A DNA stretch of 64,000 bases from Citrobacter amalonaticus (GCF_002918555.1 NZ_PQMB01000003.1:991458-1055457); one strand, 5' to 3'. Shown: positions 30,642 to 53,358, numbered from the stretch's first letter. Notes: generated by a model from the sequence alone, not told the origin. Program-made: numbers and translations.

Positions 30642-31436
30642 CTAGAGTGAGTTTCCCATTACCGTCTGATACAGCAGTCTGTCCAGTTCCCTGACATCTC
30701 CTTCCCGACTGTCCGGAATAACCGGCGGGATCTCGCCTCGCGCCAGTTCAGCACGGATAAACGCGTGCAGCAGTGGGCGACGTGGACCGTATTCCGCTTC
30801 TCCCGTACGTTGTTTGCGTTCAAGCAGTTCGTCTATCTCCTGACGTAGCGCGGCATCCAGTTCGCTTCCCGCCAACAGTGCGGCAAAACGCACAGGCGGC
30901 ACGCCCTTCCCTGCTTCAACCCAGCGTACGGCCAGTAACGGGCGCAGGACATAGAAGTATTTTTTTAACCGTACATCCTCACCCTGCAGATAACCGCGGA
31001 AGTTTTTTCGCGCCATCGAGTAGTAGTGCCAACGGGCGCGAAGTGGCGAAAACCATTTTGGTACGAGCGCCTTAAGCGCGGATACCGTTGCCTCATCCTG
31101 ATGATAAACCACCGGTGAACCCAGCCATTCTATCAGCGTGGGGTTAGCCCCCTTCAGTAAACCAAGTGCTTTACGCCACTCCCAGCCGCAGACGTCCAGT
31201 TCATCGTCTATTGGCAGCTCGATTACATCGCGCGGGGCTTCTACCCGCAGGTACCACTCCGGCTGATGGACATATAAAAACCGCACATCGTAATCGCTGT
31301 CTGGAGAAGCGAATCCCCAACCGCGGCTGCCGGATTCGCAGGCATACAGCACCCGAACGCCATAGCGCTGCTCCACCTCTTTCAGCTGCCACGCAACCTG
31401 TTCGCGCATGGCGGCAGTAACACCGTTATTGCTCAT
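30642..31436 (-). CDS. Pol-beta-superfamily nucleotidyltransferase (264 aa), distal gene of the RtcR-associated sigma54 operon
   Basis: GS-x10-DYD motif (ESGSRGWGFASPDSDYDVRF) typical of minimal nucleotidyltransferases; ATGA start/stop overlap with the upstream SPFH gene. Confidence 0.75.
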   Translation of the reverse strand: MSNNGVTAAMREQVAWQLKEVEQRYGVRVLYACESGSRGWGFASPDSDYDVRFLYVHQPEWYLRVEAPRDVIELPIDDELDVCGWEWRKALGLLKGANPTLIEWLGSPVVYHQDEATVSALKALVPKWFSPLRARWHYYSMARKNFRGYLQGEDVRLKKYFYVLRPLLAVRWVEAGKGVPPVRFAALLAGSELDAALRQEIDELLERKQRTGEAEYGPRRPLLHAFIRAELARGEIPPVIPDSREGDVRELDRLLYQTVMGNSL

Positions 31437-32569
31437 CGTTCTGCTCCTTTTATATTCACCAGGCCGTGCAGCACCTGATCCAGACCGCCAAAGACCGAGA
31501 TTTTATCGATACGTTCCGCCACTCTTTCGAGCGTCTCCAGCTCTTTTAAACGCAGCGCCACCGGGTTGTTTTCCATCACTTTCGCGGTGTTCAACAACGA
31601 GCGGGTCGCGGCGGTTTCTTCACGTCGACGAATCACGTTAGCCTGTGCTGACTTTTCCGCTTCCACCAGGCGGGAGAGAATAGCCTTCATATCGCCAGGC
31701 AGGACAATATCCTTCACACCAGGTGAGGCGACTTCAATGCCAAACGGCGCCATACGGGCTTTTACCTGCGCGCTGACGACTTCGTCGATGATCTGCTTAT
31801 TTTCCAGCAGTTCATCAAGGGTGCGCGTTCCCACCGCTTCTCGCAGCGCAAACTGTAACTCCCGGTACAGGTGGTCCAGCGGTTTCGTAAGCCGGGAAAA
31901 TGCCAGCAACACGTCGCTAAAGCGCCAGTTTGCCGCCAGATTCAGGCGCAGATTGACCTTATCTTTGGTCAGGATCTCCTGTCCACCGACCTCCAGCACC
32001 TGCAGACGGGTATCCACCACGTCGGCTTCAACCAGATGATTCACCTTCCAGTACGCGGTCAGACCGGGTGTCAGCAACGGCTGTGTCTCACCGTCAATTT
32101 TCAGAACGCCCACGTGCCAGGCCGGAACCTGTACTGTCAGCATCGCTTCACGTCCTTTCACCGCACCATTACGGCGTGGCTGTAACACCGCATTCATGAC
32201 GTCCGCGGGTACCAGAGCCTGGCGTGTATCCATCCGTACCTGTCTCAACGCCTCATCGGCTCGCCAGTACAGGCGGCGCGTTGACGGCGGCAGGATCTCC
32301 TGCAAAATGTCGTTCATATACAGCGCACCTGCCTCTGTGTCACTTAAATCCACCGCCAGGCAGTAGCGCTCAACCCAGCCGGGCTGGAAGCGACGCAGAT
32401 ACTCCGCCAGCGTTTCCTGCACTTCGCTGCCGTCCAGATTAATGACAAGTACCTCTGGCGTACTGAACCACGGCAGACGATGTTCACCCGCTTCCAGCAC
32501 CTGGTAGTAATCGCCCTCACGGGACAAAAGCCCTAACTGACCTTTTCGTATTGTGATTTTCTTAGCCAT
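31433..32569 (-). CDS. Cytoplasmic SPFH/band-7 (stomatin/flotillin-like) domain protein (378 aa)
   Basis: C-terminal half has SPFH-like coiled-coil segments (…IEVASPGVKDIVLPGDMKAILSRLVEAEKSAQANVIRRREETAA…); no N-terminal TM segment. Confidence 0.78.
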   Translation of the reverse strand: MAKKITIRKGQLGLLSREGDYYQVLEAGEHRLPWFSTPEVLVINLDGSEVQETLAEYLRRFQPGWVERYCLAVDLSDTEAGALYMNDILQEILPPSTRRLYWRADEALRQVRMDTRQALVPADVMNAVLQPRRNGAVKGREAMLTVQVPAWHVGVLKIDGETQPLLTPGLTAYWKVNHLVEADVVDTRLQVLEVGGQEILTKDKVNLRLNLAANWRFSDVLLAFSRLTKPLDHLYRELQFALREAVGTRTLDELLENKQIIDEVVSAQVKARMAPFGIEVASPGVKDIVLPGDMKAILSRLVEAEKSAQANVIRRREETAATRSLLNTAKVMENNPVALRLKELETLERVAERIDKISVFGGLDQVLHGLVNIKGAER

Positions 32570-33019: not shown

Positions 33020-34603
33020 ATGATGAAAAAGCGGCGGGTAGTGATTGGTGTCCTGGGCACGGTGTTGGATAAACGCGGCAAGCGGGCAAACCGGTTTAAG
33101 AAATGGCGGCCCACGGTCGGCTTGTGCCAGCAGGCTGATTTCCCGATCGACAGGCTGGAACTGCTCCACCAGCCGCGAGATGAGAGCATGGCGCAACGGT
33201 TGATTGAAGATATCGCCCAGCTTTCACCCCATACCGACGTCCGCGCACAGGCGATCACAATTAACGATCCGTGGGATTTTGAGGAGGTCTACGCTGCGTT
33301 TCTCGACTTTGCCACACATTATGAATTTGATACGCAAAACGAAGAGTATCTGGTGCACATCACCACCGGCACCCACGTGGCGCAGATCTGCTGGTTTCTG
33401 CTAACGGAAGCCCGCTACCTGCCTGCCAGCCTGTTGCAAACCAGTCCGGCAACGAAAGGTTCATCAGACGAAGCTATCGCCGCTGGTGTCTGTTCGGTGA
33501 TCGATCTTGATTTAAGCCGCTATGCCACGCTCACCAGTCGCTTTCAGCGCGAGCAACAGCAGTCGGTCTCATTCCTGAAAGCCGGTATTGAAACGCGCAA
33601 TGTGACGTTCAACAAACTTATCGACCGAATTGAGCGGGTTGCGCTACGTTCAACAGATCCGATTCTGCTTACCGGCCCCACCGGTGCGGGTAAATCCTTT
33701 CTTGCAAAACGTATTTTTCAGCTTCGCCAGTCGCGTCATCTGGTGGCAGGAAAGCTGGTGGCAATAAACTGCGCCACCCTGCGCGGCGACAATGCGATGT
33801 CTACGCTGTTCGGTCACGTGAAAGGCGCTTTTACCGGGGCGCTGGCTCCACGTACCGGGCTATTACGTGAGGCCGATGGCGGCGTGCTGTTTCTCGATGA
33901 AATCGCCGAATTGGGGCTGGATGAACAGGCCATGCTGCTGAAAGCGATTGAAGAGAAAACGTTTTTTCCATTTGGCTCGGATACAGAGGTCCATAGCGAC
34001 TTTCAGCTGATTGTCGGAACCCATCGCGATATGCCGCAGTGGGTGGCGGAAGGCCGCTTTCGCGAAGATCTCTACGCGCGTATCAATATGTGGCGTTTCG
34101 CCCTGCCTGGTCTGGCGCAGCGGCGCGAAGATATCGCCCCGAACGTCGAGTATGAGCTTCAGCGTTTTTCCCGCAGTAAACAGATGCAGATCCGCTTTGA
34201 TAAAGAGGCCCGCGAGCGCTATCTGGCATTTGCCTGCTCGACGCAGGCACAGTGGCGCGGCAACTTTCGCGAGCTGAGCTCTTCCGTTGCGCGCATGGCG
34301 ACGCTTGCCGAACAGGGACGTATTACGTTAGTCCTTGCTGAAGAAGAGATTGCGCTACTGCAAGAGAACTGGCAAAGCACTGCCTCACTACCTGAGCTGG
34401 AGGGGGAGATCGACCTTTTCGACAGGCGACAGCTGGAAACGGTGCTGGAGGTATGCCGCCGCTGCGCATCGTTGTCTGAAGCCGGACGAGAACTCTTCGC
34501 CGTCTCCCGACAGAAAAAAGCCAATCCCAACGATGCCGACCGCCTGCGCAAGTACCTGGCCCGCTTTGGGCTGAGCTGGGAGAGCATCCGCTGCGGATCA
34601 TGA
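33020..34603 (+). CDS. rtcR: RtcR-family sigma54-dependent transcriptional activator (CARF-like N-domain + AAA+ sigma54-interaction domain + C-terminal HTH), 527 aa
   Basis: Walker A LLTGPTGAGKSFLAKRI, GAFTGA motif (HVKGAFTGALAPRTG), N-terminus MMKKRRVVIGVLGTVLDKRG... resembling E. coli RtcR, C-terminal HTH. Confidence 0.85.
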   Translation: MMKKRRVVIGVLGTVLDKRGKRANRFKKWRPTVGLCQQADFPIDRLELLHQPRDESMAQRLIEDIAQLSPHTDVRAQAITINDPWDFEEVYAAFLDFATHYEFDTQNEEYLVHITTGTHVAQICWFLLTEARYLPASLLQTSPATKGSSDEAIAAGVCSVIDLDLSRYATLTSRFQREQQQSVSFLKAGIETRNVTFNKLIDRIERVALRSTDPILLTGPTGAGKSFLAKRIFQLRQSRHLVAGKLVAINCATLRGDNAMSTLFGHVKGAFTGALAPRTGLLREADGGVLFLDEIAELGLDEQAMLLKAIEEKTFFPFGSDTEVHSDFQLIVGTHRDMPQWVAEGRFREDLYARINMWRFALPGLAQRREDIAPNVEYELQRFSRSKQMQIRFDKEARERYLAFACSTQAQWRGNFRELSSSVARMATLAEQGRITLVLAEEEIALLQENWQSTASLPELEGEIDLFDRRQLETVLEVCRRCASLSEAGRELFAVSRQKKANPNDADRLRKYLARFGLSWESIRCGS

Positions 34604-35921: not shown

Positions 35922-36488
35922 TCAATGAGTGACAGTGACACCCTCCCCGGTTTCAGCATCCAGGACAAACTCCGAGAAGATAAATTGTCTGACCTGAAGT
36001 ATCGAACTGAGGTTAAGCTTTTGCCCTATTCTGCTGGTATAGGAATAGACAGTTTTTGGCGACAGATAAATTTTCCTGGCAGCCGCCCAGGTGTCGTCAG
36101 TATCAAGCAGGGCAAAAAGTGTCTTTTTTTCCTGAACTGAAAGTATGCTGAGACTCCTGTAGCGTGCAATGTGGTTTAACGCATATTCAGGTGAATGCGT
36201 CCTGCCGTCGGTGAGTTGTTTTCGAAACTCCATAAAGCACGATTTTCTGTATATCGTTACAATCGGCTCAAGAACTCTTGAACTGACATCCTTGCCACCG
36301 ATGAAGATCAACCTATGCTTTTCAATCAGTTTATTTCTTTTCAGCAGTCTGAATATCGACCCCAGGCTTCTGAAAGATTCAATGTCAATGACGCAAACCT
36401 TCCTGCTGGCAGGAACTTGCTGAAGGATGACAGACAACGCGTTATTAAAAAAAACATCTTTAGTCAAAATTATGTGAGGCATAAACAT
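35922..36488 (-). CDS. LuxR/FixJ-family HTH regulator with degenerate receiver-like N-domain (188 aa)
   Basis: C-terminal LuxR-type HTH (LSVQEKKTLFALLDTDDTWAAARKIYLSPKTVYSYTSRIGQKLNL); AT-rich gene immediately downstream of the autotransporter. Confidence 0.6.
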   Translation of the reverse strand: MFMPHIILTKDVFFNNALSVILQQVPASRKVCVIDIESFRSLGSIFRLLKRNKLIEKHRLIFIGGKDVSSRVLEPIVTIYRKSCFMEFRKQLTDGRTHSPEYALNHIARYRSLSILSVQEKKTLFALLDTDDTWAAARKIYLSPKTVYSYTSRIGQKLNLSSILQVRQFIFSEFVLDAETGEGVTVTH

Positions 36489-36515
36489 AACCGGAAAATT
36501 TCAGAACACAATGAA

Positions 36516-36535
36516 AAGGGGCCCTGAGGCCCCTG
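36516..36535 (-). terminator. Hairpin AGGGGCC-tcag-GGCCCCT just after the autotransporter stop
   Basis: Perfect 7-bp-arm inverted repeat 9 bp past the stop codon. Confidence 0.5.
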
Positions 36536-36543
36536 ATATAACA

Positions 36544-39500
36544 TCAGAATCCGATACGGATACCGGCCACACCCTGGACCGGTGTCTCTGTGTGGCTGCC
36601 CTGACGATAATTAGCCTCGCCATATAAGGTTACGTCCCTGCCAACACTGACCGATGCGCCCAGACCATACTTGCCTGATGTCCCTTTGACGTTGTTATCG
36701 AAGCGGTTGCGTGCATTGATGGTGACCTCATTTGCGTCCGCAAACTCCTGCACGACCGCAGCCGACAAATAAGGCTTAAATTCAGTCTCACCGAGGCTGA
36801 ATTTACCGGTAAGCTTCGCGCCGGCCTCACCCGTGACCGAGCGTGGCGTGCCGGTGTTACCCTTCATGCCGTTGCTCAGCTTCACGTCCTCACTGCTCAT
36901 CTGAACATACGCCAGGCGGGCATAAGGCGTGAGACTCAGGTCGTCCCTCACATCAAACTGATAGCCCCCTTCAACGGCTGTGCTGAGACCATACTGCTTC
37001 CAGTCACCGCCGGTTTTGCCGCCATTGGTCATAACGGCGCTCAGTTTGTTGTTCAGGCGGTTACCCTTCACCACACCGTCAGCGTAGAAGCCGCTGGCAT
37101 CGAACCATGTTGCATACAGGCCGATACCGTAGCTGTCGATGTTGCTTTTTCCACCGCGGGCATGCTTAACCTGGTTGTCGCTGTAAGACATGAATGCCCC
37201 CGTGAAGAGGCTGCCGCGCGCAAAATCCGTCCGCGTGTCGGCGCCGATTTCCATGCCGCTCTGATTAAGCTGATACGCCGCGCCGTTGCTGGTATCCGTA
37301 TGGTTTTTGCTGCCGAGGTAGTGACCCCAGACGTTATTCTCCGGTCCGGTTTTATCCAGATTCGCCCGGTACATGCGCAGGCCATCAAGTTCGGAGTGAA
37401 TGACATTCAGGCCGGCATTCGACATGGCCAGGATGGCGTCCGCTGCCGGAGTGGTCATCGGCTTCTTGCCACCGCCCGGGTTTTCACCGCCACCTGGATT
37501 CTCACCGCCACCTGGATTCTCACCGCCACCCGGATTCTCACCGCCGCCAGGGTTCTCGCCACCGCCAGGGTTCTCGCCGCCACCCGGATTCTCACCACCG
37601 CCAGGGTTCTCGCCACCGCCCGGGTTCTCACCACCGCCAGGTTCTTCCGTCATCGCGCCCAGGTACCAGACGTTCCCGCCGTTCAGACCATCCTTGTTCT
37701 GCTGGCTGAACAGCGTGTACATGTAAGTCCCACCGTCAATGGCCCGGATACTGCGGCCTGACGCCGTGACCATCTCAAAATCAATATCGCCACCCTGCTC
37801 GTGAATGAGATTCACCGTCAGGTCTGTATGGTCTGATATCTCCTTACCGGAGTCGGTAACAGCGATACCGAAGTGACCCGTACCCTGTTCGATGGTGACA
37901 AAGTTGGCATTACGCTCAGCGAGAGAAGTATTGAACAGGAAGCTGCCGGTGCCGCTGAGTTCGGAGATGTTCAGCTCCGCGAAGTCACCTTCACCGTTAC
38001 GCAGGAAGGAGACATTGCCGCCGTTCATGGTGAGCTTATCGACCTGAGCCGGGGTATAACTGGTGGTGGTATCGGTAAGGTCGGCGACAGAGAGGGTCCC
38101 CCCTGTGATGCGCACGTCCGTTGCGACAGAGCCAGCGTCCATCAGCAGTTCACCACCGGCGTTCACTTTGGTTTCGCCGTCAGCCAGTGCCCCCGTCTGC
38201 AGCCACGACTGACCGCTATTGATGGTGGTGTTAATAGTCGTGCCGCCACTGGAGACCCACTGCCTGCCACCGCTATTGATAGTGGTATCAACAGCGGTGG
38301 CACTGTCGAGTAGCTGTATACCACCATTAATGGTGGTAGTGATGATGGTGGTTGCCTCGCCATCGATAACTTGTTGAATGCCACCGCTGTTAATGATGGT
38401 GTCAATGGTGGTGCCACCTGAAAAGTACTGTATGCCACCGCTGTTAATTGTGGTGTCAATGGCGGTGCCACCTGAAAGGTACTGTGTGCCACTGCTGTTA
38501 ATTGTGGTGGCAATAGCTGAACCGCCAATGTCGATGTATTGGAGACCTCCGTAGATGGTGGTGTCATTGGCAGTGCTCCCACTGGAGACGAACTGCACGC
38601 CAAAGTAGTTGATGGTGGTATCAGTGGCGATGCCGCCATCGTAGACATACTGCTGGCCACCGCTGTTGATGGTGGTATCAGTGGCGGTGCCGGCATAGAC
38701 TTTCTGCCAGCCACCGCTGTTGAGGGTGGTGTTGGTGGCAGTGCCGCGCTGGACCAACTGCTCACCGCCATTGAGGATAGTGTTCGTAGCTATACCACCG
38801 ACGAACTGAACACCATTGAAGATGGTAGTGTTTGTTGCAGAGCCGCCGCTTAAGACCGACTGCTGGCCACCGCTGTTAATGGTGGTCTCAGTGGCTGTTC
38901 CCCCTATAGTGACCCATTGCGCGCCACCGCTTTTGATGGTGGTGTTAGTGGCTGTGCCGCCACTGAAGACGTTCTGCCTGCCACCGCTGTTGATGGTGGT
39001 GTTAGTGACTGAGCCCTCACTTTGGACGCTTTGAGAACCGCCGTTAATGGTGGTGTCAGTGGCTGTGCCACCTCGCTCGACGTATTGAAAACCGCTGTTG
39101 ATTATGGTGTTTGTGGCTGTGCCCTCATTGAAGACGTCCTGATAACCACCATTAACGGTGGTGCCAATGGCTGTGCCGCCACTGGAGACGTACTGATAAC
39201 CACCACTGTTGATGGTGGTTTTTGTGGCTATGCCCTCATTGAAGACTACTTGATAACCACCATTCACAGTGGTGTCAGTGGCCGAACCTCCGCTGTAGAC
39301 GTCCTGATGACCACCATTAACGGTGGTGTCAGTGGCTGTGCCGCCGCTGGAGACGTTCTGTCCGCCCCCGCTGTTGATGGTGGTGTTTGTGGCTGTGCCG
39401 CCGTTGACGTATTGAGTGCCGCGGCTGTTAATAGTGGTGTCATTGGCCGTGCCGTCACTGGAGACGTACTGCTCGCCACCGCTGTTAATTGTAGTTTCGG

Positions 39501-40167
39501 TAGCCGTGCCGCCACTGAAAACTTTCTGCCAGCCACCTGTGTAGATGGTGGTGTCAGTGGCCGAACCGCCGCTGTAGACGTCTTGATGACCACCACCATT
39601 AATGGTGGTGACAGTGGCAGAGCCGCCACTGAAGACGCTTTGACTACCACCGTTAATGGTGGTGTCAGTGGCTGTGCCCCTATTGTAGACATTCTGACTG
39701 CCACCGCTAATAGTGGTGTCAGTGGCTGTGCCGCCGCTAACGATCTCCTGCTTGCCACCACTGTTGATGGAAGTGTCAGTGGCTGTGCCACCTAAGATGT
39801 ACTGGTCGCCACCGTTGTTGATGGTGGTCTCAGTGGCCGAGCCCCCAACGTAGACGTCCTGCATGCCCCCATAGTTGATGACGGTCTCAGTGGCTGAGCC
39901 CCCATTGTAGATGTACTGACTGCCACCGTTGATAGTAGTAGAGGTGGCCGTATCTCCTGAAGAAATAGTCTGTTCACCCGTTAGCGTCACGTCCACATAA
40001 TCCACGGCCATGACCGGCGCTGAGGGCAGCAGCATTGCCCCCAGCAGCAGTGCCAACGCGCTTTTCTTCGGCACCAGCTTCGGGCGACCGGACCCGGATG
40101 CCAGTTCAGAGGTGACCACCCACTGCTGGCGCGACTCGCACCAGACGGTGGTATATATCTTGTTCAT
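36544..40167 (-). CDS. AIDA-I/TibA/Ag43-type self-associating autotransporter adhesin (1207 aa) with ESPR signal peptide, ~19-aa imperfect passenger repeats, (PGGGEN)n linker and C-terminal beta-barrel
   Basis: N-terminus MNKIYTTVWCESRQQWVVTSELA (extended signal peptide region); >30 repeats of GGTATDTTINSGGxQxVxS; C-terminal autotransporter barrel ending ...VAGIRIGF. Confidence 0.9.
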   Translation of the reverse strand: MNKIYTTVWCESRQQWVVTSELASGSGRPKLVPKKSALALLLGAMLLPSAPVMAVDYVDVTLTGEQTISSGDTATSTTINGGSQYIYNGGSATETVINYGGMQDVYVGGSATETTINNGGDQYILGGTATDTSINSGGKQEIVSGGTATDTTISGGSQNVYNRGTATDTTINGGSQSVFSGGSATVTTINGGGHQDVYSGGSATDTTIYTGGWQKVFSGGTATETTINSGGEQYVSSDGTANDTTINSRGTQYVNGGTATNTTINSGGGQNVSSGGTATDTTVNGGHQDVYSGGSATDTTVNGGYQVVFNEGIATKTTINSGGYQYVSSGGTAIGTTVNGGYQDVFNEGTATNTIINSGFQYVERGGTATDTTINGGSQSVQSEGSVTNTTINSGGRQNVFSGGTATNTTIKSGGAQWVTIGGTATETTINSGGQQSVLSGGSATNTTIFNGVQFVGGIATNTILNGGEQLVQRGTATNTTLNSGGWQKVYAGTATDTTINSGGQQYVYDGGIATDTTINYFGVQFVSSGSTANDTTIYGGLQYIDIGGSAIATTINSSGTQYLSGGTAIDTTINSGGIQYFSGGTTIDTIINSGGIQQVIDGEATTIITTTINGGIQLLDSATAVDTTINSGGRQWVSSGGTTINTTINSGQSWLQTGALADGETKVNAGGELLMDAGSVATDVRITGGTLSVADLTDTTTSYTPAQVDKLTMNGGNVSFLRNGEGDFAELNISELSGTGSFLFNTSLAERNANFVTIEQGTGHFGIAVTDSGKEISDHTDLTVNLIHEQGGDIDFEMVTASGRSIRAIDGGTYMYTLFSQQNKDGLNGGNVWYLGAMTEEPGGGENPGGGENPGGGENPGGGENPGGGENPGGGENPGGGENPGGGENPGGGENPGGGKKPMTTPAADAILAMSNAGLNVIHSELDGLRMYRANLDKTGPENNVWGHYLGSKNHTDTSNGAAYQLNQSGMEIGADTRTDFARGSLFTGAFMSYSDNQVKHARGGKSNIDSYGIGLYATWFDASGFYADGVVKGNRLNNKLSAVMTNGGKTGGDWKQYGLSTAVEGGYQFDVRDDLSLTPYARLAYVQMSSEDVKLSNGMKGNTGTPRSVTGEAGAKLTGKFSLGETEFKPYLSAAVVQEFADANEVTINARNRFDNNVKGTSGKYGLGASVSVGRDVTLYGEANYRQGSHTETPVQGVAGIRIGF
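37470..37652. repeat. Tandem 18-bp in-frame repeat (x10) encoding (PGGGEN)10 inside the autotransporter
   Basis: Units CCGCCNCCNGGRTTCTCR repeated head-to-tail on the plus strand; encodes EEPGGGENPGGGEN...PGGGKKP. Confidence 0.9.
38100..39975. repeat. Intragenic ~57-bp (19-aa) imperfect tandem repeat array of the autotransporter passenger domain
   Basis: Repeated TINSGG.Q.V.SGGTATDT peptide units; explains the many shadow ORFs on both strands here. Confidence 0.85.
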
Positions 40168-40178
40168 AGTAACGCTCC

Positions 40179-41348
40179 TTAATTATCAACTAATCCTGCA
40201 TGCAGACGGTCCACCATCCCTGTAACCTGTCGTCCGGTTATCAGCCGCGTGCACTCATACTGTCTTGGGGTATCCCTGTGATGCGGGCACCACAAAAAAT
40301 CCTGGTGGTCAAAGTCAACCGACGTGTCATCCCAGCAGCCGTTACAGCCATGACTGCTGAACACCCGCCAGGGGGTGTAAAATTCGCTATTCGGAAGGCT
40401 GAATCCGCTGATCAACACCACAGGTATGTCAGTTGCCCAGGCAAGCCATGACAGCCCGCTGGCCAGACCGATAAAGAAACTCGCATGCATTAACAGGTCC
40501 ACCCGATCCTGAAGCGGAATGTCGCCCGTGAAGTCTTCGGCACCATAGGGGATGTGGTTCCAGACGAAGCCCTGACCGTGACGGGCCTGGCGGTCAATGC
40601 ACAGCACCCGGTACCCCAGTGATTTAAGGTGGGCAACCACCTCTGCCCAGCCATGACCGTTGTTCCAGTATTTCGCCTGGTTGGTTGACTGTGCGGCGAT
40701 ACAGACGTACGGCTCCGCAATTTTTCGCTCTGCATCCAGTTTCAGACGAGGCGGAGACTCACGGGGGTCAACCCCGAGGATGTAACCGGCATTGCGGTGA
40801 AAACCGACTTTCCTGAAATCAATGGGCTGATGAAGGGTGTCACCCTGAAAGAAAATGCCGACATACCAGGACGCGTAGGGATTCACTGTCCGGAGAGATT
40901 CTTTTGTGGAGAAGGTAATCTCAGGATATTGTGCGCTGAGCAGGTCAATGATTTCCTGCCCCATGACGCATTCAAGCTGGCACCGGTGCAGTTGACGAAA
41001 TCGCTCGGCGTAAGGGAACCAGCCAAGCATATCGCCCAGCGTCCCGGTCGGGAAAAAGATGACGACCGGCTTGTCCTTCATGTCCAGTGTTTCATCCAGG
41101 ACCGGATGCGCTTCTCCCTGGTGGAATACCTGAATACGGAAACGGACGTAATATTTTTTGGTACTGGTGACCCACCCTCCGTCAGAATCACAACTGAAAA
41201 GTATATTGCCGGATTCATCATCCATTAAAATGACATGCCATTTCCCTTCCGGAAGGTAAACGCGTGCACCGTAATTAAAGTCAAACAGAATGCCTTCCGG
41301 TCCGGCGCAGGTCGGAAACTCCGGAGGAGTTGCAAAGTTAACTGACAT
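40179..41348 (-). CDS. Autotransporter adhesin heptosyltransferase (Aah/TibC-like BAHT family), 389 aa, upstream of and co-oriented with the autotransporter
   Basis: Gene order (transferase then AIDA-like autotransporter, 11-bp gap) mirrors aah-aidA and tibC-tibA; size and Cys-rich C-terminus (CNGCWDD...CPHH) fit TibC-like enzymes; assignment by similarity is moderate. Confidence 0.65.
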   Translation of the reverse strand: MSVNFATPPEFPTCAGPEGILFDFNYGARVYLPEGKWHVILMDDESGNILFSCDSDGGWVTSTKKYYVRFRIQVFHQGEAHPVLDETLDMKDKPVVIFFPTGTLGDMLGWFPYAERFRQLHRCQLECVMGQEIIDLLSAQYPEITFSTKESLRTVNPYASWYVGIFFQGDTLHQPIDFRKVGFHRNAGYILGVDPRESPPRLKLDAERKIAEPYVCIAAQSTNQAKYWNNGHGWAEVVAHLKSLGYRVLCIDRQARHGQGFVWNHIPYGAEDFTGDIPLQDRVDLLMHASFFIGLASGLSWLAWATDIPVVLISGFSLPNSEFYTPWRVFSSHGCNGCWDDTSVDFDHQDFLWCPHHRDTPRQYECTRLITGRQVTGMVDRLHAGLVDN

Positions 41349-41552
41349 ATCTCATCTATCCTTAGTATTCATTTGCAATCGGTAATGATTTAATCAATTG
41401 CACAGGTTATTCTTCTGCAATGTTTTTTCGTGACGGGTTGTGAGCTGTTTTATATCAGGCCCATAAGCAGTTCCACATTTCACATGTTTCCCGGCTGTAA
41501 AAACGTTTAAAATTAACTTGTAGTGGATGATTAACTTTTAATTTTGCCTGGA

Positions 41553-42386
41553 CTAATGATGTTCAATCTTTTCACAAGAGTGAAGAAGTAAAATGTGTGC
41601 ACAAAACTCGCGCATACTTACAGGTCGAGAAAACAAATAGCCCTGAAAGGTATCAATCCCCTTCATTTCTAAAAGCTTAAACTGCTCATTCGTTTCAACA
41701 CCTTCAGCAATAATATGCAGATTTAACTTCTCACTAAAAGACATGATGGCGTCAATAACAGAGGAATAAATCAATTTATGGTTACAAACCATCGTTAAAC
41801 ATTTGTCAATTTTTATCGTTGAGAATCCAGCGTGTTCAATGTATTTTAAGCATGAACCACCACTGCCATAATCATCTATTGAAAAACCAACACCTGACGC
41901 AACAAGCTCCTGCATCGCATCCAGGGCAAAATCGTCAAATTCTAATGTGCCACGCTCAACAATCTCAAGAATAACCATGATGTCTTTGCCAAAATGAATA
42001 TTAAATTCTTTAACCGCTTTTACCATTCGTGATGAATTGAGCTGTTGGGCACAGATATTAAAAGAAAAATAAAAACCTTTCGGTAGAGACTCAACATGAG
42101 GAGTGAAATGTGCTTTCACTTTCTCCAGAAGTTCACAAGTAACATCGTTGCATACTTCACCGCTTTCAATAACAGAAAGATACGATTCTGGAGAATGAAG
42201 GACACCATTCTTTTTCACCCTCATAAGGACTTCGCATCCCACTAATTCTCCCGACTGGTAAACAGGTTGAATAAAAGGAACAAACTCGGCACCTGCAAGT
42301 TCGGAGGTCAATATGGATTTTCTTACTGACCGTAGCAATCTACAAATCACTTGTTCTGTTTTCCTGAGTATTCTGATATTTGTCAT
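41553..42386 (-). CDS. Stand-alone EAL-domain protein (c-di-GMP phosphodiesterase-like, possibly degenerate), 277 aa
   Basis: EVL(M)R in place of EALxR, DDYGSG (DDFGTG-like) and KIDK motifs; no GGDEF or sensor domain; AT-rich. Confidence 0.8.
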   Translation of the reverse strand: MTNIRILRKTEQVICRLLRSVRKSILTSELAGAEFVPFIQPVYQSGELVGCEVLMRVKKNGVLHSPESYLSVIESGEVCNDVTCELLEKVKAHFTPHVESLPKGFYFSFNICAQQLNSSRMVKAVKEFNIHFGKDIMVILEIVERGTLEFDDFALDAMQELVASGVGFSIDDYGSGGSCLKYIEHAGFSTIKIDKCLTMVCNHKLIYSSVIDAIMSFSEKLNLHIIAEGVETNEQFKLLEMKGIDTFQGYLFSRPVSMREFCAHILLLHSCEKIEHH

Positions 42387-42720
42387 CGTCAGGGCCCCTT
42401 ACTCGTGTGCTCACAATCCTGCAGGAGATACCGTTCGCTAATCATCTGATGCAATCGGTAACTCATGTATTAACGGCCAACAGGCCAGTTCACTTTTGAC
42501 GGGGAAATTTTATCTCCCTCATGCTGTAATCAACAACATGTATCTTAAATTTCAAAAATACCAGACTTATATTTTTAAATACATTGACTATACGAACGTT
42601 TATTCTGGTACGGGCGTCATCACGGCTGGGTATGATATGCTAATGAGAAGGTCACAGAGGGGTTAATGAAACAAGGACTGCTGTCTTTCGTCAGTCTGCA
42701 GCCAGGTTTCGTGGAGAGTC

Positions 42721-43527
42721 TTGATGGAGTATTTAATCAATTCACAGGTAAGGTATCGTACAGATGACGGTGCAATATGGCCTGTACGGGATGATGAATC
42801 GGTCATTATTCTGACCATAACAATGAACAGGCTGCTAGTCTATCTTCTGGAAAGACAGGGGCAGGTTGTTAAGCGGGATGAACTGCTAAATAATGTCTGG
42901 GACTTACATGGCCTGCGATCGTCCAGCCATACCCTGAATAAATACATTTCCGAAATCAGAAAACACTTTATGAGAGCTGGCATTCATCATGAGTGTATTA
43001 CGACGATTCCAAGGGTCGGGTTTGTTTTTAACAGTGATGTCGAGGTTATAGCAATTGATAATGCGGAAAATAATATACATTCGGATACTATAAATGCTGC
43101 TGTCGGGACGGTTCTTACTCATTCAATACAACCCTTAAGATACAAAGCATGGTATGCAGCAATAACCCTTTTTATCATCATATGTAGCACCGCCCTTATA
43201 ATCTCTGGCAATCGCCTAAAATCTAAAACAAACGTCAAATTACAAGACGCTCCTGTTTATTTTCTTTTCAATTATCAAACCTGTCCAGTTTATACGACGC
43301 AAAAAAACTCCGCATCGTTTCTCGAACAAAAAAAGAAAGTTTTTCTTGATCTTGTGAACGTCAATAAAATTGAGTGTCTGAACGGCACCTCGTTTCTGTA
43401 TCAGGCATCCGACTCCTATATGTATGGTAGTAAAGGACGTATATTTATCAGCAGATGCACATCTAAAAAAAATAAATATCTTTCCTGCCTAAATAATTAC
43501 TGGACTGGTTATGAACAAAATCAATAA
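42721..43527 (+). CDS. ToxR/CadC/PsaE-like membrane-anchored transcriptional activator: N-terminal OmpR-type winged helix, one TM helix, periplasmic C-domain (268 aa)
   Basis: wHTH segment RLLVYLLERQGQVVKRDELLNNVWDLHGLRSSSHTLNKYISEIRKHF; TM AWYAAITLFIIICSTALIISG; AT-rich. Confidence 0.7.
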   Translation: MMEYLINSQVRYRTDDGAIWPVRDDESVIILTITMNRLLVYLLERQGQVVKRDELLNNVWDLHGLRSSSHTLNKYISEIRKHFMRAGIHHECITTIPRVGFVFNSDVEVIAIDNAENNIHSDTINAAVGTVLTHSIQPLRYKAWYAAITLFIIICSTALIISGNRLKSKTNVKLQDAPVYFLFNYQTCPVYTTQKNSASFLEQKKKVFLDLVNVNKIECLNGTSFLYQASDSYMYGSKGRIFISRCTSKKNKYLSCLNNYWTGYEQNQ

Positions 43528-44002
43528 TATACAAAGATGGCTCGCTGCTATTTTAATCCTAATTCTGACTTTATCCCTCTGGTTCTATCTACATGCACGT
43601 CAGCAACAAAAGGGTATGGATGTTAACTGTGCGGCAAGCTTACGTTATAATCAGCGTGATCCTGATTTTATAGCCACGTTCGACATGATTTTCCGGCTGA
43701 ACAAAAGTTTTTATGGCCAGGTATTCCTGTTCGGTAATATTCACTCTGAACGTGGAGTAGAAGTTATCTCCCGGACTATTCAGTTTAATTATGAGGTTTA
43801 CAGACCGGGAGAGATTTCGGTGACGAACATGCATTATGCAAAAAATATCAGTGATACAGCTAATGATGAGCTTTTCAAACAGAGATTTTTCTACGTCCCT
43901 GAAAATTCTTCACGTGTGCTCAGGCTTAATCCGTCAGGCAATAGCTGGTTAATTGAAAACCTTCAATCCCCTTTCGCGCTTTGCGTGAATAAAGACGGAT
44001 AG
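43511..44002 (+). CDS. ToxS/PsaF-like partner: N-terminally membrane-anchored periplasmic protein (163 aa), 17-nt overlap with the upstream regulator gene
   Basis: Single N-terminal TM (WLAAILILILTLSLWFYL), size and operon arrangement as for ToxS/PsaF/VtrC partners; sequence similarity itself not verifiable by eye. Confidence 0.5.
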   Translation: MNKINNIQRWLAAILILILTLSLWFYLHARQQQKGMDVNCAASLRYNQRDPDFIATFDMIFRLNKSFYGQVFLFGNIHSERGVEVISRTIQFNYEVYRPGEISVTNMHYAKNISDTANDELFKQRFFYVPENSSRVLRLNPSGNSWLIENLQSPFALCVNKDG

Positions 44003-46028: not shown

Positions 46029-47315
46029 TCAGGGCATGTCAAAGGTAAGGGTAGCCATTGCCTCATAGTTCCCAGCACCAGTCGGTGCCTTACTGGCATT
46101 GGCAGCCGTTGGATAAGCGTAGAATTTCGCTGTAGCCGTTTTACCTGAAGCCTCAGCTTGTACGGTTTGCGTACCATCAACTTTAACCAGGTTCTTACCC
46201 GCAGCATCGCTGGTGATCTTAACCCCCAGGTCGTTTATCCCCGTTCCCTTCGCCAGCAGTATTCCTTGTTGCGCTGCCCCGGCAGATAAACTGTCACCAA
46301 CCCCAGTCATTGACCAGACAACCCCTTTAGTAAATGAGGAGTTAATATCACCGGAGCAATTCAACGCAATTTTGGTCTCTTTCGGTGTAAAACCATCAGG
46401 GATGCCGCCTTGCCCCTTGCCCACCAGTTTTCCTACCGATGTTGTCGCAAGATCGATGGTCTTTGTCGTTTCTGCCACGCTACAGGTCGTTCTGAACGTC
46501 ACTGTCCCCTGGATATAGTAGTCAATAAGAGGCGTTGTCGAGGCACCTTTGGTACATATTTTGGCGGCCTCATAGTCCGCATCATTGGATCCGTAATCAA
46601 TACACATGTGGTGTATTGATGATTGGCCCACCTTCATTGAAGGGATCGTGATAGTGGAATACGGTGTCCTGGGCATATAAAAAGACACTTGAATGTTGCG
46701 GTTATTATATTGATTACCCAAGGTAAAAGTAATGTATGACGTATCACATGCAACGTTCGCGGCGTAGTTTCCCTCTGCCTTTGTGCAGCCAGAAAGTGCA
46801 GTCGTTTTACCCCAACTAGACCAATTAGTATTAAATTCGTACCATCCCAGACCATCGTTACTCGTTCCCCTGAAATACAGGTCTAGTAGGTCGACATATT
46901 CATATCGGTCAATGTTAGGCAGCCACATTTGCTGTGCTAACCGTATATACACAGGAATATTTGTCCCCGTGATGTTTTTCAACCGATAATACTTTTTGCC
47001 ACTCACGTTTATCGTATCGCCAGTATTCACATTAGCAGTATCATACCTCCCCTCAATCACCGGGGAACTACTTGTCCAGCGGCCATTACGCTTGTCAAAA
47101 TCACGGGCGGGTGCACGAAACTTCGTCTCTCCTGAGGGCAGTGTCAGATTTGAGATCACTAAAAGCGCGCCTCCTTTGTTCGTGACATCTTCCGCAATAG
47201 TGAAATTGGCTCGGCTTGATGTATTACCTGTTCGTGGCATTACCACCGTCTGCGCCGCATAAGCACTACCGACACAAATGAAAAGCAGATTAAGAAGAAA
47301 AATGTTGAGTTTCAT
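46029..47315 (-). CDS. Fimbrial tip adhesin (two-domain lectin + pilin), 428 aa
   Basis: Signal peptide MKLNIFLLNLLFICVGSAYA; last gene of the chaperone-usher operon; C-terminal pilin-like domain ending ...ATLTFDMP. Confidence 0.72.
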   Translation of the reverse strand: MKLNIFLLNLLFICVGSAYAAQTVVMPRTGNTSSRANFTIAEDVTNKGGALLVISNLTLPSGETKFRAPARDFDKRNGRWTSSSPVIEGRYDTANVNTGDTINVSGKKYYRLKNITGTNIPVYIRLAQQMWLPNIDRYEYVDLLDLYFRGTSNDGLGWYEFNTNWSSWGKTTALSGCTKAEGNYAANVACDTSYITFTLGNQYNNRNIQVSFYMPRTPYSTITIPSMKVGQSSIHHMCIDYGSNDADYEAAKICTKGASTTPLIDYYIQGTVTFRTTCSVAETTKTIDLATTSVGKLVGKGQGGIPDGFTPKETKIALNCSGDINSSFTKGVVWSMTGVGDSLSAGAAQQGILLAKGTGINDLGVKITSDAAGKNLVKVDGTQTVQAEASGKTATAKFYAYPTAANASKAPTGAGNYEAMATLTFDMP

Positions 47316-47384
47316 CTCGCTTCCTTCTTACTAATGAAAAAAGACACAGCGTTTTTGAGAAAATTATGATTTTTGAAAACTGAA

Positions 47385-47990
47385 TTAATCATACGATGCA
47401 CTCACCATCAATGTTGCCGTCACCTGCCCTGCGGTGATTGCGGTTCCCGTCTGCATGTATCTGACATAATAATCACGCGGCGTCGCCAGCGGAGCCTGAG
47501 GGGTAATCGGATACGTCAGAAGGCGGCTCTTGCCTGTATTATCTAACACGTTCTGATTATCCCGCTGGTCAAATACTGCAAAGCCCACGCCGTTATCAAT
47601 GCGTTGACCAGAACCGTCGATGGCCTGATTGATGAATATGCCAGGCGCGGCTTTACCATTACTCGGCAGCGCATCGAAGCTAATTCGGATCTTCGACGCG
47701 GTTATCGTAGACAGTATGCAGTTTTCAACTATCAACGAAAAATTTTTCCTCAGGGAAGAGAGCCGTTGTTCTGAAAACTCACCTACGCCGATGGGTGATA
47801 AAAACAACACATCACTATTGAAACGGACATCGCAGGTTGTTTGTATCAGCTCACCACCAAAATTAATACCATAGCCACTACCATCAGAGATAATCTCTCC
47901 CGCCGCGATAGCATTACCGGGCATAAAGCAAGGCGTCATCAGAAAGGCTAATGAAATAATTCCCTTTCGTTTCATTATCAACTCACTCAC
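47385..47990 (-). CDS. Fimbrial minor subunit (201 aa)
   Basis: Signal peptide, pilin-like size, C-terminal ...TATLMVSASYD typical beta-strand end of type 1-like pilins. Confidence 0.7.
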   Translation of the reverse strand: MSELIMKRKGIISLAFLMTPCFMPGNAIAAGEIISDGSGYGINFGGELIQTTCDVRFNSDVLFLSPIGVGEFSEQRLSSLRKNFSLIVENCILSTITASKIRISFDALPSNGKAAPGIFINQAIDGSGQRIDNGVGFAVFDQRDNQNVLDNTGKSRLLTYPITPQAPLATPRDYYVRYMQTGTAITAGQVTATLMVSASYD

Positions 47991-48036
47991 CGTAAACGCT
48001 CCAGAATATTCATATCAGATTAAAAAGAGCACGGTA

Positions 48037-48648
48037 TTACTCGTAAGCAATATTCACAAAAGCCTTAGCCTGAAGATCTTTACCCGCACTATTGGCATTT
48101 ACAGCAACAGAATCAGCCATTAATCCACCTCTGGCCACAACCATTTTGGCATACAGCGGCCATGTATAATCGTTGCCCGTTTTGGTCAAGGAAGCCAGTG
48201 GCAAAACGGTCGGTTCGCCCGCTTTATCCGCACTGACATACACCGCATCAGTCTCTGAAGTAGACGCGGTATTTTTGAACAATGCGAACCCCAGGCCAGA
48301 CTCCCTGTCATTTGCATCAAGGAAGTTTACCGCTTTACGTATAAAGCCCGCGCCAGAGGTGGATGCACCGACAAAATTGACTTTAATATTAGTGATACTA
48401 TTACAGCCCGAAAACTTCAGAGACACGTTTTTAACCGGAGCAGCTGGAATAATCGTCCCTTGCGCTTTCCCCACAATATCAGATGCATTGAGGCTGCCAA
48501 ACGCAATATCCGTACCATTAGAACCCACAAAAGAAGCCGTACAGGTTGGTGCAGTAAGGGTTCCTTTAAATGTTAAATTCACCGTTGCGTCTGCTGCCAG
48601 AGCGGAAAGTGGAGCGCAGAGTAACATAGCAGAAATAATTTTTTTCAT
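48037..48648 (-). CDS. Fimbrial subunit (203 aa)
   Basis: MKKIISAMLLCAPLSALAADATVNLTFKGTL...; Cys pair; C-terminal ...AFVNIAYE pilin motif. Confidence 0.75.
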   Translation of the reverse strand: MKKIISAMLLCAPLSALAADATVNLTFKGTLTAPTCTASFVGSNGTDIAFGSLNASDIVGKAQGTIIPAAPVKNVSLKFSGCNSITNIKVNFVGASTSGAGFIRKAVNFLDANDRESGLGFALFKNTASTSETDAVYVSADKAGEPTVLPLASLTKTGNDYTWPLYAKMVVARGGLMADSVAVNANSAGKDLQAKAFVNIAYE

Positions 48649-48664
48649 TTGTCGGCTCCCTTTC

Positions 48665-49231
48665 TTAAAGATAAGTAATATTTACAACAGCGGTTGAATT
48701 CAGTGAACCTGAAACCATCTTTGAATAAGCATCAACGGTCGGAACAATAGTCGTCTTAATATAGACACTCCATTCCGGTGAAAATTTCTCTGTGCCAGTA
48801 TTCATCGTTTTGTTATCAGCCTGCAGCGAATAATATGTACCCGTTGCACCATTTTTCACTTCGGTCCTGAACGCCACGCCTGTCGCGCCACCGGTGGCCG
48901 GTACAACCCATTTTCCCTGATAAGCACCGGAAGCGATATCAGCAGTACTGGTGGAACTCAGAGAAAGAGACATATTATTGACAGCAACACAGTTATTCAG
49001 TTTGAATGACTGCTCAACGTTCTTTGTCCCGGCAAATGCCTCAACAGGGGTCACATTGCCAAACTCATATGTCAGCCCGTCAGACCCCGAACTCAGGGTA
49101 CAGGTACCACGGTTAATGTGGGTACTTGCCGTAAAATCGACTTTCTCAGCCAGTGCGGAACCGCTCAACATCACCGCACACAGGGAACCCGTAATGAATA
49201 CTGATTTCCCTTTTAAATTGAATTTATTCAC
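48665..49231 (-). CDS. Fimbrial subunit (188 aa)
   Basis: Signal peptide and pilin-like C-terminus ...STAVVNITYL. Confidence 0.75.
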   Translation of the reverse strand: MNKFNLKGKSVFITGSLCAVMLSGSALAEKVDFTASTHINRGTCTLSSGSDGLTYEFGNVTPVEAFAGTKNVEQSFKLNNCVAVNNMSLSLSSTSTADIASGAYQGKWVVPATGGATGVAFRTEVKNGATGTYYSLQADNKTMNTGTEKFSPEWSVYIKTTIVPTVDAYSKMVSGSLNSTAVVNITYL

Positions 49232-49294
49232 TAAAAACTCCTTTTTTAATCAAAAACATTCATACTAAAGATGATTCGCTTGATGGTGATGTTA

Positions 49295-51961: not shown

Positions 51962-51973
51962 CGTGGAAAAATG

Positions 51974-52681
51974 TTATTTGATAACAGCGGTACCCTCTAC
52001 ATCGTTACCATAATCAGAAATATAACTGTAGGTAAGACTCGCTCCTGCGGACGGTTTAAACGCCTTGTTATCAAATGCGAATGTTTCTGTTGCAAAAGGT
52101 GCAACCATTCCTGATTTAGCTCCGTTATTACCCACTTTCATCATGTTGAATGTCAGATAATAAGGAGAATTATTTTTTGCAACTAACGCACCATTTTCAG
52201 CGCGCCATTCAACTTTACCCGCTGCATCCTGGGGTTTTACGGTTAAAGCCGTTGGACGATAAAACATCTTGATACGGGTACGGAATGCCAGCTGTAATTT
52301 ATTATTACCCGCATTCTGATCTTTTGCTTTTGGTGGAACCTCCAGCACGTTCAGGTAGTAGATGCTTTCACGGTCTTTTGGCAAACTGGCATCCATTTTT
52401 GAAATACGCAGCGTCTGACCTTTCTTCGCATCAATGCGAGATACCGGCGGGGAGATCATAAATGGCAGATCAATATTCTCCGGTGATTCCGTTGCACGAC
52501 CATCGTCCAGCCATGACTGCACCAGCAGCGGACGCTTACCTTCGTTGGTCAGACGGACGTTAACTTCTTTCGCTGATTCTTTATAGACCACGCGAGTGGT
52601 ATTAATGACCACATCTGCCCATACGGAAGAGCTGGCGGCCAACGTCGCAGCCATAATTGCAGATAAATATTTAACTGACAT
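51974..52681 (-). CDS. Periplasmic fimbrial chaperone (PapD/FimC family), 235 aa
   Basis: MSVKYLSAIMAATLAASSSVWADVVINTTRVVYKESAKEVNVRLTNEGKRPLLVQSW... classic PapD-like N-domain. Confidence 0.9.
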   Translation of the reverse strand: MSVKYLSAIMAATLAASSSVWADVVINTTRVVYKESAKEVNVRLTNEGKRPLLVQSWLDDGRATESPENIDLPFMISPPVSRIDAKKGQTLRISKMDASLPKDRESIYYLNVLEVPPKAKDQNAGNNKLQLAFRTRIKMFYRPTALTVKPQDAAGKVEWRAENGALVAKNNSPYYLTFNMMKVGNNGAKSGMVAPFATETFAFDNKAFKPSAGASLTYSYISDYGNDVEGTAVIK

Positions 52682-52746
52682 TTATGTATTGCTCTCTGAA
52701 AAAATAAGGCGGTTATAAGCGTTACCGCCTTTGGTTTAGTAAAAAT

Positions 52747-53358
52747 TTACATGTAGACGACGCTGAAGGTGGCTACCGTTTCTATACCACCGGCAGTGAC
52801 ATCAGCAGGTTGAGCAGCTGTCTGAACATAACGGGTTTCAAAACTGTAGGTCTGCGCACCCGTTTTAGGGTCTTTATAATCCGCGTCCGCCAGGGCGTTC
52901 AGGTCCATCAGCAAATCGCTCCCCCCCACCTTGGTGAAGCCCATCTGGATGCCCTTAGCAGCAATATCCATGGTATTCACAGACTGCAGCAGGCTGTTGG
53001 TATAGGTGCTGGTACCCGCATCAGCGTAACCAGTAGAGTCAAAGCTGACCGCCAATCTGGTCTTACCTGATGGCAACGTGCAACCATCCAGAGTAATATT
53101 TACGGTACGCATATCGCGAGACGCTTTCAGGGAAGTGCCTTTCGCGGACTTCACCTCTTTAGTCAGATCAACAGCTGCAACCGGATCGATATTCAGCAGA
53201 ATAGAAGATGGCGCACCGTTAATTGCTACAGCACAGGTTTTATTGATTACTTCACCGTTGATACGAATCTGGCCATCTGCCGCCATTGCGTTCATTGCAA
53301 TAAAACCGCCCGCAACCAGCACAGCAACCTGAGAAATTTTACGAACTGAATAATGCAT
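52747..53358 (-). CDS. Major fimbrial subunit (type 1/gamma-like pilin), 203 aa
   Basis: First gene of the operon; signal peptide, Cys pair (CAVAING...DGCTLP), C-terminal ...TFSVVYM. Confidence 0.85.
   Translation of the reverse strand: MHYSVRKISQVAVLVAGGFIAMNAMAADGQIRINGEVINKTCAVAINGAPSSILLNIDPVAAVDLTKEVKSAKGTSLKASRDMRTVNITLDGCTLPSGKTRLAVSFDSTGYADAGTSTYTNSLLQSVNTMDIAAKGIQMGFTKVGGSDLLMDLNALADADYKDPKTGAQTYSFETRYVQTAAQPADVTAGGIETVATFSVVYM

Follow-up and report, generated by a model that had tools for sequence, protein, structure and literature searches.

What do the two adjoining open reading frames (ORFs) at positions 36544–41348 of a 64,000-nucleotide stretch of Citrobacter amalonaticus DNA (GCF_002918555.1, NZ_PQMB01000003.1:991458–1055457; the whole stretch is referred to below as the window) encode, and do they stand alone? 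Both ORFs, of 389 and 1207 amino acids (aa), lie on the minus strand exactly where a first-pass annotation, made from the sequence, had placed them. Our analysis indicates that they very probably form a bicistronic operon for an O-heptosyltransferase of the BAHT family and its cognate substrate, an autotransporter of the AIDA/TibA type. The two-gene cassette described in the first-pass annotation is thus real as a pair, but the unit is larger: a six-gene island of about 8.1 kb, in the order fidL-like, marT-like, EAL, BAHT, autotransporter and LuxR-like, which adds a MarT/FidL-type pair, an EAL-domain gene and a LuxR-type gene to the two.

The 389-aa product of the first gene (40179–41348, minus strand) was assigned as a BAHT-family autotransporter O-heptosyltransferase, a homologue of TibC and Aah, from profile matches and alignment to TibC. 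It scores 604.2 bits (E = 8.2e-182) over positions 2–373 of the 374 in TIGR04414 (hepto_Aah_TibC), a curated equivalog model with a cut-off of 200 bits, and also matches PF21129 (TibC_1st; 111 bits, cut-off 27) and PF01075 (GT9; 38.8 bits, cut-off 22). It shows the two-domain architecture of BAHT enzymes, with an N-terminal flattened beta-barrel (TibC_1st) and a GT-B/GT9-like catalytic domain. Alignment with the crystallized TibC (4RAP) is gapless over TibC residues 8–392 (E = 2.5e-210), with 285 of 385 residues (74%) identical, and identity to Aah is 66%. The first-pass annotation had proposed a BAHT-like heptosyltransferase on context and size more than on motifs, and had allowed that the protein might bear no similarity to BAHT enzymes. 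The comparison with TibC and Aah decisively dismisses that possibility, and the proposal itself holds on firmer ground than was claimed for it, the motifs all being recognizable in the sequence. NCBI names the protein ‘autotransporter strand-loop-strand O-heptosyltransferase’.

Which TibC residues are required for function was established by Yao et al. 2014 (PMC4358343). Residue mapping shows that the catalytic base, Asp110 in TibC, is kept as D106 in the 389-aa protein, and that the four ADP-heptose contacts Thr226, Lys230, Arg286 and Trp305 are all kept as T222, K226, R282 and W301. The iron-finger cysteines 339, 342, 358 and 370, which coordinate Fe in TibC, are likewise all retained (C335, C338, C354 and C366), as is Phe265–Val266, the consecutive hydrophobic pair in the beta-hairpin thumb of the TibC dodecamer (F261–V262). 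TibC Phe368, which the dodecamer also requires, is replaced by Y364, a conservative change to the residue that is commoner across the family. The Asp, Lys, Arg and Trp, together with the four Cys, are invariant over 31 BAHT loci from many genera. Relative to the C. braakii gene, the nonsynonymous and synonymous divergences of the BAHT gene (dN 0.020, dS 0.17) give a dN/dS of ~0.11, indicating purifying selection.

One functional position differs from both characterized enzymes. Pro300 limits TibC to ADP-D,D-heptose, and Aah, with Ser294 at the equivalent site, accepts both isomers (PMC4358343). The 389-aa protein carries Ala296 at this position, which is Gly, Ala or Thr in its closest clade. 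With these three residues at that position, the clade is a natural test of the stereoselectivity rule derived from TibC and Aah.

The second ORF (36544–40167, minus strand) encodes a 1207-aa classical (type Va) autotransporter of the AIDA/TibA type, identified by Pfam and by TIGR04415 and TIGR01414. Its AIDA, Pertactin and barrel domains, together with the TIGR04415 match, bear out the first-pass assignment, and the ESPR-type extended signal peptide that had been claimed for it is present (PF13018, 47 bits, cut-off 25, residues 1–47). The signal peptide, delimited by this match and by alignment to the TibA signal region, covers aa 1–54 (40006–40167, minus strand). The mature TibA construct begins at residue 55, and cleavage of the window protein probably follows Ala54 in the sequence VMA54.

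The passenger contains 32 strand-loop-strand repeats (aa 70–658; 38194–39960, minus strand), defined by autocorrelation and segmentation, and this region is predicted to form a beta-helix and to serve as the heptose acceptor. The autotransporter matches the AIDA repeat family PF16168 (214 bits in 15 stretches) and TIGR04415 (O_hepto_targRPT; 494 bits in 21 stretches). Passenger autocorrelation peaks at lags of 18, 19, 37 and 55, and segmentation yields units of 16–21 aa, with lengths of 18 and 19 aa each represented 14 times. The first-pass annotation had named the right repeat family, but the period is not strictly the 19 aa that it gave, units of 18 aa being mixed in. The repeat consensus is SGGTATxTTIN(S)GGxQxV. 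Within the repeats there are 25 SGG motifs, 11 of which are NSGG, and the mapped TibA acceptor Ser-313 sits in an NSGG context.

Beyond the repeats lie a Pertactin-like junction, or autochaperone region (aa 709–835; 37663–38043, minus strand; PF03212, 54.3 bits, cut-off 22), and, between this junction and the barrel, a Pro/Gly-rich linker of ten ENPGGG units encoded by an 18-nt tandem repeat (37459–37647, minus strand). Tandem Repeats Finder reports a period of 18 and 9.1 copies for the linker DNA, and the copy number among orthologues ranges from ~10 to 36. The C-terminal beta-barrel translocator spans aa 946–1207 (36547–37332, minus strand), with 172 bits to PF03797 (Autotransporter, residues 946–1186) and 291 bits to TIGR01414, so that the protein has both a 12-strand-type barrel domain and the junction/autochaperone. 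Against C. braakii the barrel has dN 0.030, dS 0.25 and dN/dS 0.12, which again points to purifying selection.

Among solved structures the best relative is the glycosylated beta-helix of TibA residues 55–350 (4Q1Q, E = 6.6e-49), followed by Ag43 (4KH3); the protein shares 38% of its residues with TibA over the whole length, and 44% within the barrel. Membership of three named groups was rejected. The protein scores 393 bits in a partial match to the AIDA-I model NF033176 and 266 bits to Ag43/Cah, each with an equivalog cut-off of 1200, and 525 bits to Bartonella BafA_Cterm, with an equivalog cut-off of 700. The autotransporter thus appears to share the AIDA/TibA/Ag43 architecture but to belong to a distinct lineage. 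The term SAAT, applied to it in the first-pass annotation, is a functional label that refers to self-association.

The two genes are separated by an intergenic junction of 11 nt (40168–40178, minus strand, from sequence inspection). Its sequence reads ...TAAGGAGCGTTACTATG. At 11 nt ahead of the autotransporter ATG, the stop codon of the BAHT gene shares bases with the Shine-Dalgarno sequence AAGGAG; the genes are probably co-transcribed and translationally coupled. The layout of a BAHT gene followed by a repeat-bearing autotransporter gene recurs in related loci, a passenger-like autotransporter gene following the BAHT gene in 15 of 19 other-species loci with at least 62% BAHT identity. Ten nucleotides past the autotransporter stop codon lies an intrinsic terminator (36517–36534, minus strand), a hairpin of AGGGGCC-TCAG-GGCCCCT followed by a T-run. 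The LuxR-type gene that had been placed directly downstream is there, with a GerE match at 35922–36488, but this strong GC-rich terminator separates it from the autotransporter gene, so it probably has its own transcription.

Upstream of the BAHT gene is an AT-rich region of 204 nt (41349–41552, minus strand; 35% GC), which was examined by alignment of eight islands and by a repeat scan. The ~110 nt proximal to the gene are conserved in the alignment. Inside this block TATTC(A/T)T(T/C)TGCAAT is directly repeated, with copies at 41366–41379 and 41408–41421, 42 nt apart, and this TGCAAT-containing repeat is a candidate operator or regulator binding site. A Dam/OxyR phase switch in the style of agn43 was ruled out, there being no GATC in 41349–41700.

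TibC/TibA and Aah/AIDA-I suggest the steps by which the pair would act. The transferase would use its Fe-Cys4 ‘iron finger’ and its beta-hairpin thumb to assemble, in the cytoplasm, as a dodecameric ring, draw ADP-heptose from the lipopolysaccharide-core pathway and attach many heptoses to loop serines of the 18/19-aa repeats. The resulting glycoprotein would be exported by Sec through its ESPR signal peptide, and the C-terminal barrel would insert into the outer membrane. The passenger would then be displayed as a glycosylated beta-helix, leading to adhesion, autoaggregation or biofilm formation.

Divergent from this operon, at the far end of the island, are two overlapping genes of a putative sensor. 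The first (42721–43527, plus strand) encodes a 268-aa MarT/ToxR-like membrane-anchored winged-helix regulator, recognized by PF00486 (53 bits), hydropathy and synteny. It has a winged helix-turn-helix domain at residues 29–103, a single transmembrane helix at ~142–165 and a periplasmic tail with cysteines at 188, 219, 246 and 256, and gives weak CadC and HilA-family matches. The second gene (43511–44002, plus strand) overlaps the first by 17 nt and encodes a 163-aa FidL-like co-component, with an N-terminal transmembrane helix and a VtrC/ToxS-like beta-barrel. The best fold matches of its predicted model are VtrC and ToxS, and its cysteines C40 and C158 are invariant in 18 homologues. An adjoining overlapping gene, a membrane-anchored, lipocalin-like partner of the VtrC/ToxS fold and a conserved Cys pair, putatively a disulfide, are the features of such a co-component. 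Searched against the local copy of Pfam, the FidL-like protein had no hit even at E = 10, and precomputed tables assign PF15941.12 to it and to nearly all its homologues; the disagreement is one of library version, not biology. Because the local scan is empty, the assignment rests on the PF15941 annotation and the fold match.

Between the sensor pair and the operon lies a gene for a stand-alone EAL-domain protein of 277 aa (41553–42386, minus strand; PF00563, 128 bits), syntenic in seven other islands. The catalytic and metal-binding motif set of EAL domains comprises E-x-L-x-R, N, E-x-x-E, DD, K, E-G-V-E and Q-G. All are present here, as EVLMR52, FSFN110, EIVE141, DDYGSG171, IKID, EGVE228 and FQGY (motif positions 52, 107–111, 141, 171, 191, 228 and 247), and the protein is predicted to be a phosphodiesterase of cyclic di-guanosine monophosphate (c-di-GMP). 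The last gene of the island (35922–36488, minus strand) encodes the small LuxR/GerE-type regulator, of 188 aa. It clears the GerE cut-off narrowly (PF00196, 26.6 bits against 23.5), its NCBI cluster representative is named ‘LuxR C-terminal-related transcriptional regulator’, and six of the seven orthologous islands have a homologue at this position. A single-sequence AlphaFold model of the protein was unusable (mean predicted local distance difference test score 44.8), and a receiver-like N-terminal half could not be discerned in it.

A single scan of a collection with one genome per species yielded 28 BAHT loci. All six loci with at least 89% BAHT identity, from C. braakii, Hafnia paralvei, two Kluyvera and two Enterobacter, keep the full six-gene order, and all are chromosomal. 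A plasmid of the plant-derived Enterobacter mori carries the first five genes in the same order, in a module flanked by an integrase and an ISNCY transposase; the gene in the LuxR position there was rejected as a homologue of the LuxR-like gene, being an unrelated small gene. None of the orthologous loci shares the genes that flank the window island, and nucleotide homology among the islands ends at ~35941 and 44002. Since homology stops there and the flanking genes differ, we take the island to extend over ~35.92–44.0 kb. It sits in a variable stretch of the chromosome between yjbD-rluF and lysC-pgi, in an otherwise E. coli-like backbone. Around the island no tRNA, Rfam family or flanking direct or inverted repeats of at least 10 nt were found, and within the window no integrase or insertion sequence (IS) lies next to it. 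Together, the sequence comparisons point to an island that moves horizontally between Citrobacter, Hafnia, Kluyvera and Enterobacter and onto a plasmid.

When the 5.8-kb region was run by megablast against complete genomes of E. coli, 5,426 in all, nothing matched; only a distant-mode search found BAHT genes, in 147 of the genomes, at 66–73% nucleotide identity. The exact BAHT and autotransporter proteins of the window occur in only four assemblies. Exact-protein look-ups of the flanking genes led to the same four assemblies only and revealed no empty insertion site.

Several of the orthologous islands have surroundings or gene contents of their own. What lies ahead of the island in C. braakii (L005, 3363–6746) is a second EAL gene, an HTH_46 regulator and another Trans_reg_C gene, the last of which overlaps a small ORF and may be part of another co-component pair. 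In Enterobacter hormaechei (L009, 5574–6793), mgtC and a MarR-type gene precede the island, resembling the mgtC ... marT-fidL-misL arrangement of Salmonella pathogenicity island 3 (SPI-3). In Kluyvera sp. STS39-E (L007, 9515–9841) the EAL gene is a 108-aa ORF, probably truncated, and the BAHT and autotransporter genes are intact.

Divergence along the island (35922–44002) was compared against three of the orthologous islands (L005, L006 and L009). In the comparison with C. braakii, the BAHT gene has a dS of 0.17, the barrel 0.25 and the LuxR-type gene 0.32; the marT-like gene stands at 1.5, and dS is saturated in the fidL-like and EAL genes. GC content is 53–57% in the structural genes, 43% in the LuxR-type gene and 38–40% in the sensor pair and EAL gene, the window mean being 52%. 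Within one island, dS thus varies by about tenfold or more, and these differences in dS and GC imply recombination between its structural part and its sensor/EAL part. The island is a mosaic: the sensor pair and EAL gene are anciently diverged alleles, and the structural genes are conserved. Within the structural part, the passenger is only 50–65% identical between islands, and the autotransporter varies in length from 1006 to 1715 aa.

Do the accessory genes control the operon? In Salmonella SPI-3, MarT/FidL activates the adjoining misL autotransporter gene (PMC9214523). By analogy, the sensor, EAL and LuxR genes may regulate the operon described here, although we would put this at somewhat under an even chance. 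If so, the MarT/FidL co-component, the EAL protein and the LuxR-type protein would most likely turn it on, responding to c-di-GMP and to a cue from the envelope or the host. We tentatively consider a broader reading, a little less probable again, in which the operon serves as the effector arm of a mobile, self-contained ‘sense-and-stick’ island of mosaic evolution, whose sensor, EAL and LuxR genes decide when the adhesin is displayed. The sensor could then possibly be lipid- or bile-sensing, like VtrA/VtrC. On the same reading, the glycosylation and secretion genes would be exchanged nearly unchanged between genera (dS 0.17–0.3), diverged sensor alleles would persist, and the passenger repeats and linker would expand and contract. 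If true, such an island would extend the SPI-3 marT-fidL-misL regulatory logic to glycosylated adhesins of the AIDA/TibA type.

Several points weigh against a full reading of the pair as a regulated glycosylated adhesin. What the analysis supports directly is gene identities, motifs, architecture, synteny and selection; expression of the locus, heptosylation, the dodecamer and adhesion are all extrapolated. The exact ADP-heptose isomer is not predictable, because Ala296 matches neither TibC Pro300 nor Aah Ser294. Nor can a ligand or target be transferred from the named proteins, because the equivalog cut-offs are missed and identity to TibA is only 38%. A heterodimer of the two sensor proteins and a link between the accessory genes and the operon are both predicted from two sources, synteny conserved across eight islands and analogy with SPI-3. 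Finally, a promoter scan found no sigma-70 consensus promoter in the 204 nt upstream of the BAHT gene, its counts overall being no higher than those for shuffled sequence, and the regulator genes are AT-rich (38–40% GC), as silenced foreign DNA typically is. The last two points would fit an island that is a silent acquired passenger, its ORFs intact and its operon repressed, for instance by H-NS, and idle in most conditions, as would the 35% GC of the upstream region and the confinement of the exact proteins to four assemblies. We consider this unlikely: purifying selection on the BAHT gene and the barrel is strong (dN/dS ~0.11), all catalytic residues are intact, six-gene synteny is kept across genera, and dedicated activator-type regulators suggest conditional expression rather than permanent silence. 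That the pair is a functionless relic in decay is very improbable on much the same grounds. The 108-aa EAL gene of the Kluyvera L007 island does show that parts of the island can decay, but in the window neither ORF is shortened, no domain or catalytic residue is missing, and dN/dS is again ~0.11.

Two further alternatives accept an intact cassette. BAHT enzymes are interchangeable, TibC modifying AIDA-I and Ag43 being modified in trans, and secretion of AIDA-I and Ag43 needs no glycosyltransferase; the transferase could therefore serve mainly substrates elsewhere in the genome, the adjoining autotransporter being secreted and active unglycosylated. The 11-nt coupling of the two genes, the repeat-bearing autotransporter that follows the BAHT gene in most loci, and the 494-bit match of the passenger to the ‘O-heptosylation target repeat’ model all speak for a cognate pair instead, and make this alternative quite improbable. 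More serious is the question of the setting in which the adhesin would act. The first-pass annotation had put forward a determinant of adhesion, biofilm formation or virulence; by analogy with characterized relatives a role in adhesion or biofilm formation is plausible, but a part in virulence is not established, given that the carriers of orthologous islands include commensal, environmental and plant-associated Enterobacterales. The cassette might serve self-association, biofilm formation or colonization in non-pathogenic settings (gut commensal, plant, environment) and not host-cell virulence, a proposal that we regard as quite conceivable, if rather short of probable. It is favoured by the hosts of the orthologous islands, namely C. 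braakii, H. paralvei, Kluyvera, Enterobacter and, on a plasmid, the plant-derived E. mori, by the EAL (c-di-GMP) gene that always adjoins the operon and points to biofilm-lifestyle control, and by reports that TibA, AIDA-I and Ag43 also drive aggregation and biofilm formation (PMC3835316, PMC7545054). On the other hand, the known sensors of the MarT/FidL and VtrA/VtrC types govern factors of virulence or gut colonization, and the closest characterized relatives, TibA, AIDA-I and CARC, are host adhesins or colonization factors. Non-pathogenic and host-adhesion roles are not mutually exclusive and can coexist.

A BAHT enzyme with its cognate autotransporter substrate thus remains our preferred reading of the pair. 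BAHT/autotransporter pairs are established colonization and adhesion factors in E. coli of the enterotoxigenic (ETEC) and diffusely adhering (DAEC) kinds and in C. rodentium, and such a pair, intact in a further Citrobacter lineage, is plausible there as a determinant of adhesion or biofilm formation and is a candidate glycoantigen of the cell surface. The gene pair by itself is routine, because the NCBI pipeline already names the enzyme; the new content is the mobile six-gene island with its ToxR/ToxS-type sensor, its mosaic evolution and the uncharacterized stereoselectivity residue. Sensor, EAL and LuxR genes together offer a candidate circuit for a class of adhesins about whose control little is known, as the uncharacterized TibB and TibD illustrate.

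Other accessory loci were noted elsewhere in the window. A chaperone-usher fimbrial operon (46029–53358, minus strand) is inserted between rluF and pepE, within 2 kb of the island, and constitutes a second accessory adhesin locus. It includes an usher (49295–51961), a chaperone (51974–52681), several genes for small subunits and, as a likely tip adhesin, a Fimbrial-domain protein of 428 aa (46029–47315). On the other side of the island, an RtcR-type sigma-54 activator gene (33020–34603, plus strand) and a Band_7/slipin gene (31433–32569, minus strand) are divergently oriented, the latter accompanied by an RlaP-type nucleotidyltransferase gene (30642–31436, minus strand); rtcB and rtcA are not nearby. 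In E. coli GF130 the slipin–nucleotidyltransferase pair lies directly beside yjbD, without rtcR. A further accessory cluster (15678–20055), between xylE and yjbEFGH-like genes, includes a fused gene for the IIC and IIB components of a cellobiose/lactose-family phosphotransferase system (18325–20055, minus strand).

How does the locus compare with systems already described? The closest is TibC-TibA, from the tibDBCA locus of ETEC H10407, which has the same order of transferase then autotransporter and whose functional transferase residues are kept. The autotransporter resembles TibA in its ESPR, its 18/19-aa repeats, its Pro-rich linker and its barrel. The linkers lie at the same place, that of TibA being the pentapeptide NPDAG repeated five times and that of the window protein the hexapeptide ENPGGG repeated ten times. 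The window passenger is only ~38–45% identical to that of TibA and much longer, with 32 repeats in a protein of 1207 rather than 989 aa. Both loci also have a LuxR-type gene and EAL-coding sequence nearby, the latter a fragment in the tib locus. The LuxR-type genes lie on opposite sides of the two pairs, and the window protein was rejected as a counterpart of TibB, having no similarity to the LuxR-type protein in the TibB position. The window lacks a CaiF/GrlA-type TibD, whereas the tib locus lacks a MarT/FidL-type sensor pair, and the window island, unlike tib, has no flanking IS elements.

Aah-AIDA-I, which is plasmid-borne in diffusely adhering and porcine E. coli, shares the two-gene layout and the passenger-repeat family, with 38% identity to the window passenger over ~700 aa. 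It differs in its barrel, only 21.5% identical to that of the window protein, and in lying amid IS remnants on plasmids. The BAHT-Cr/CARC system of C. rodentium, likened here by description only, is a system of the same kind in the same genus; CARC is described, in the citing papers PMC4358343 and PMC8498110, as a hyper-heptosylated autotransporter needed for colonization (Lu et al. 2014). The sensor pair finds its parallels in MarT/FidL-MisL of SPI-3, ToxR/ToxS and VtrA/VtrC, in which the gene of a winged-helix membrane regulator overlaps that of a membrane-anchored partner with the VtrC/ToxS fold. The likeness to SPI-3 extends to the position of the sensor pair near an autotransporter gene, to the conserved Cys pair of the FidL-like protein and to the mgtC gene that adjoins the Enterobacter island. 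The window locus differs from SPI-3 in that an EAL gene is interposed and in that its autotransporter is not MisL but a protein of the AIDA/TibA type, encoded together with its own glycosyltransferase.

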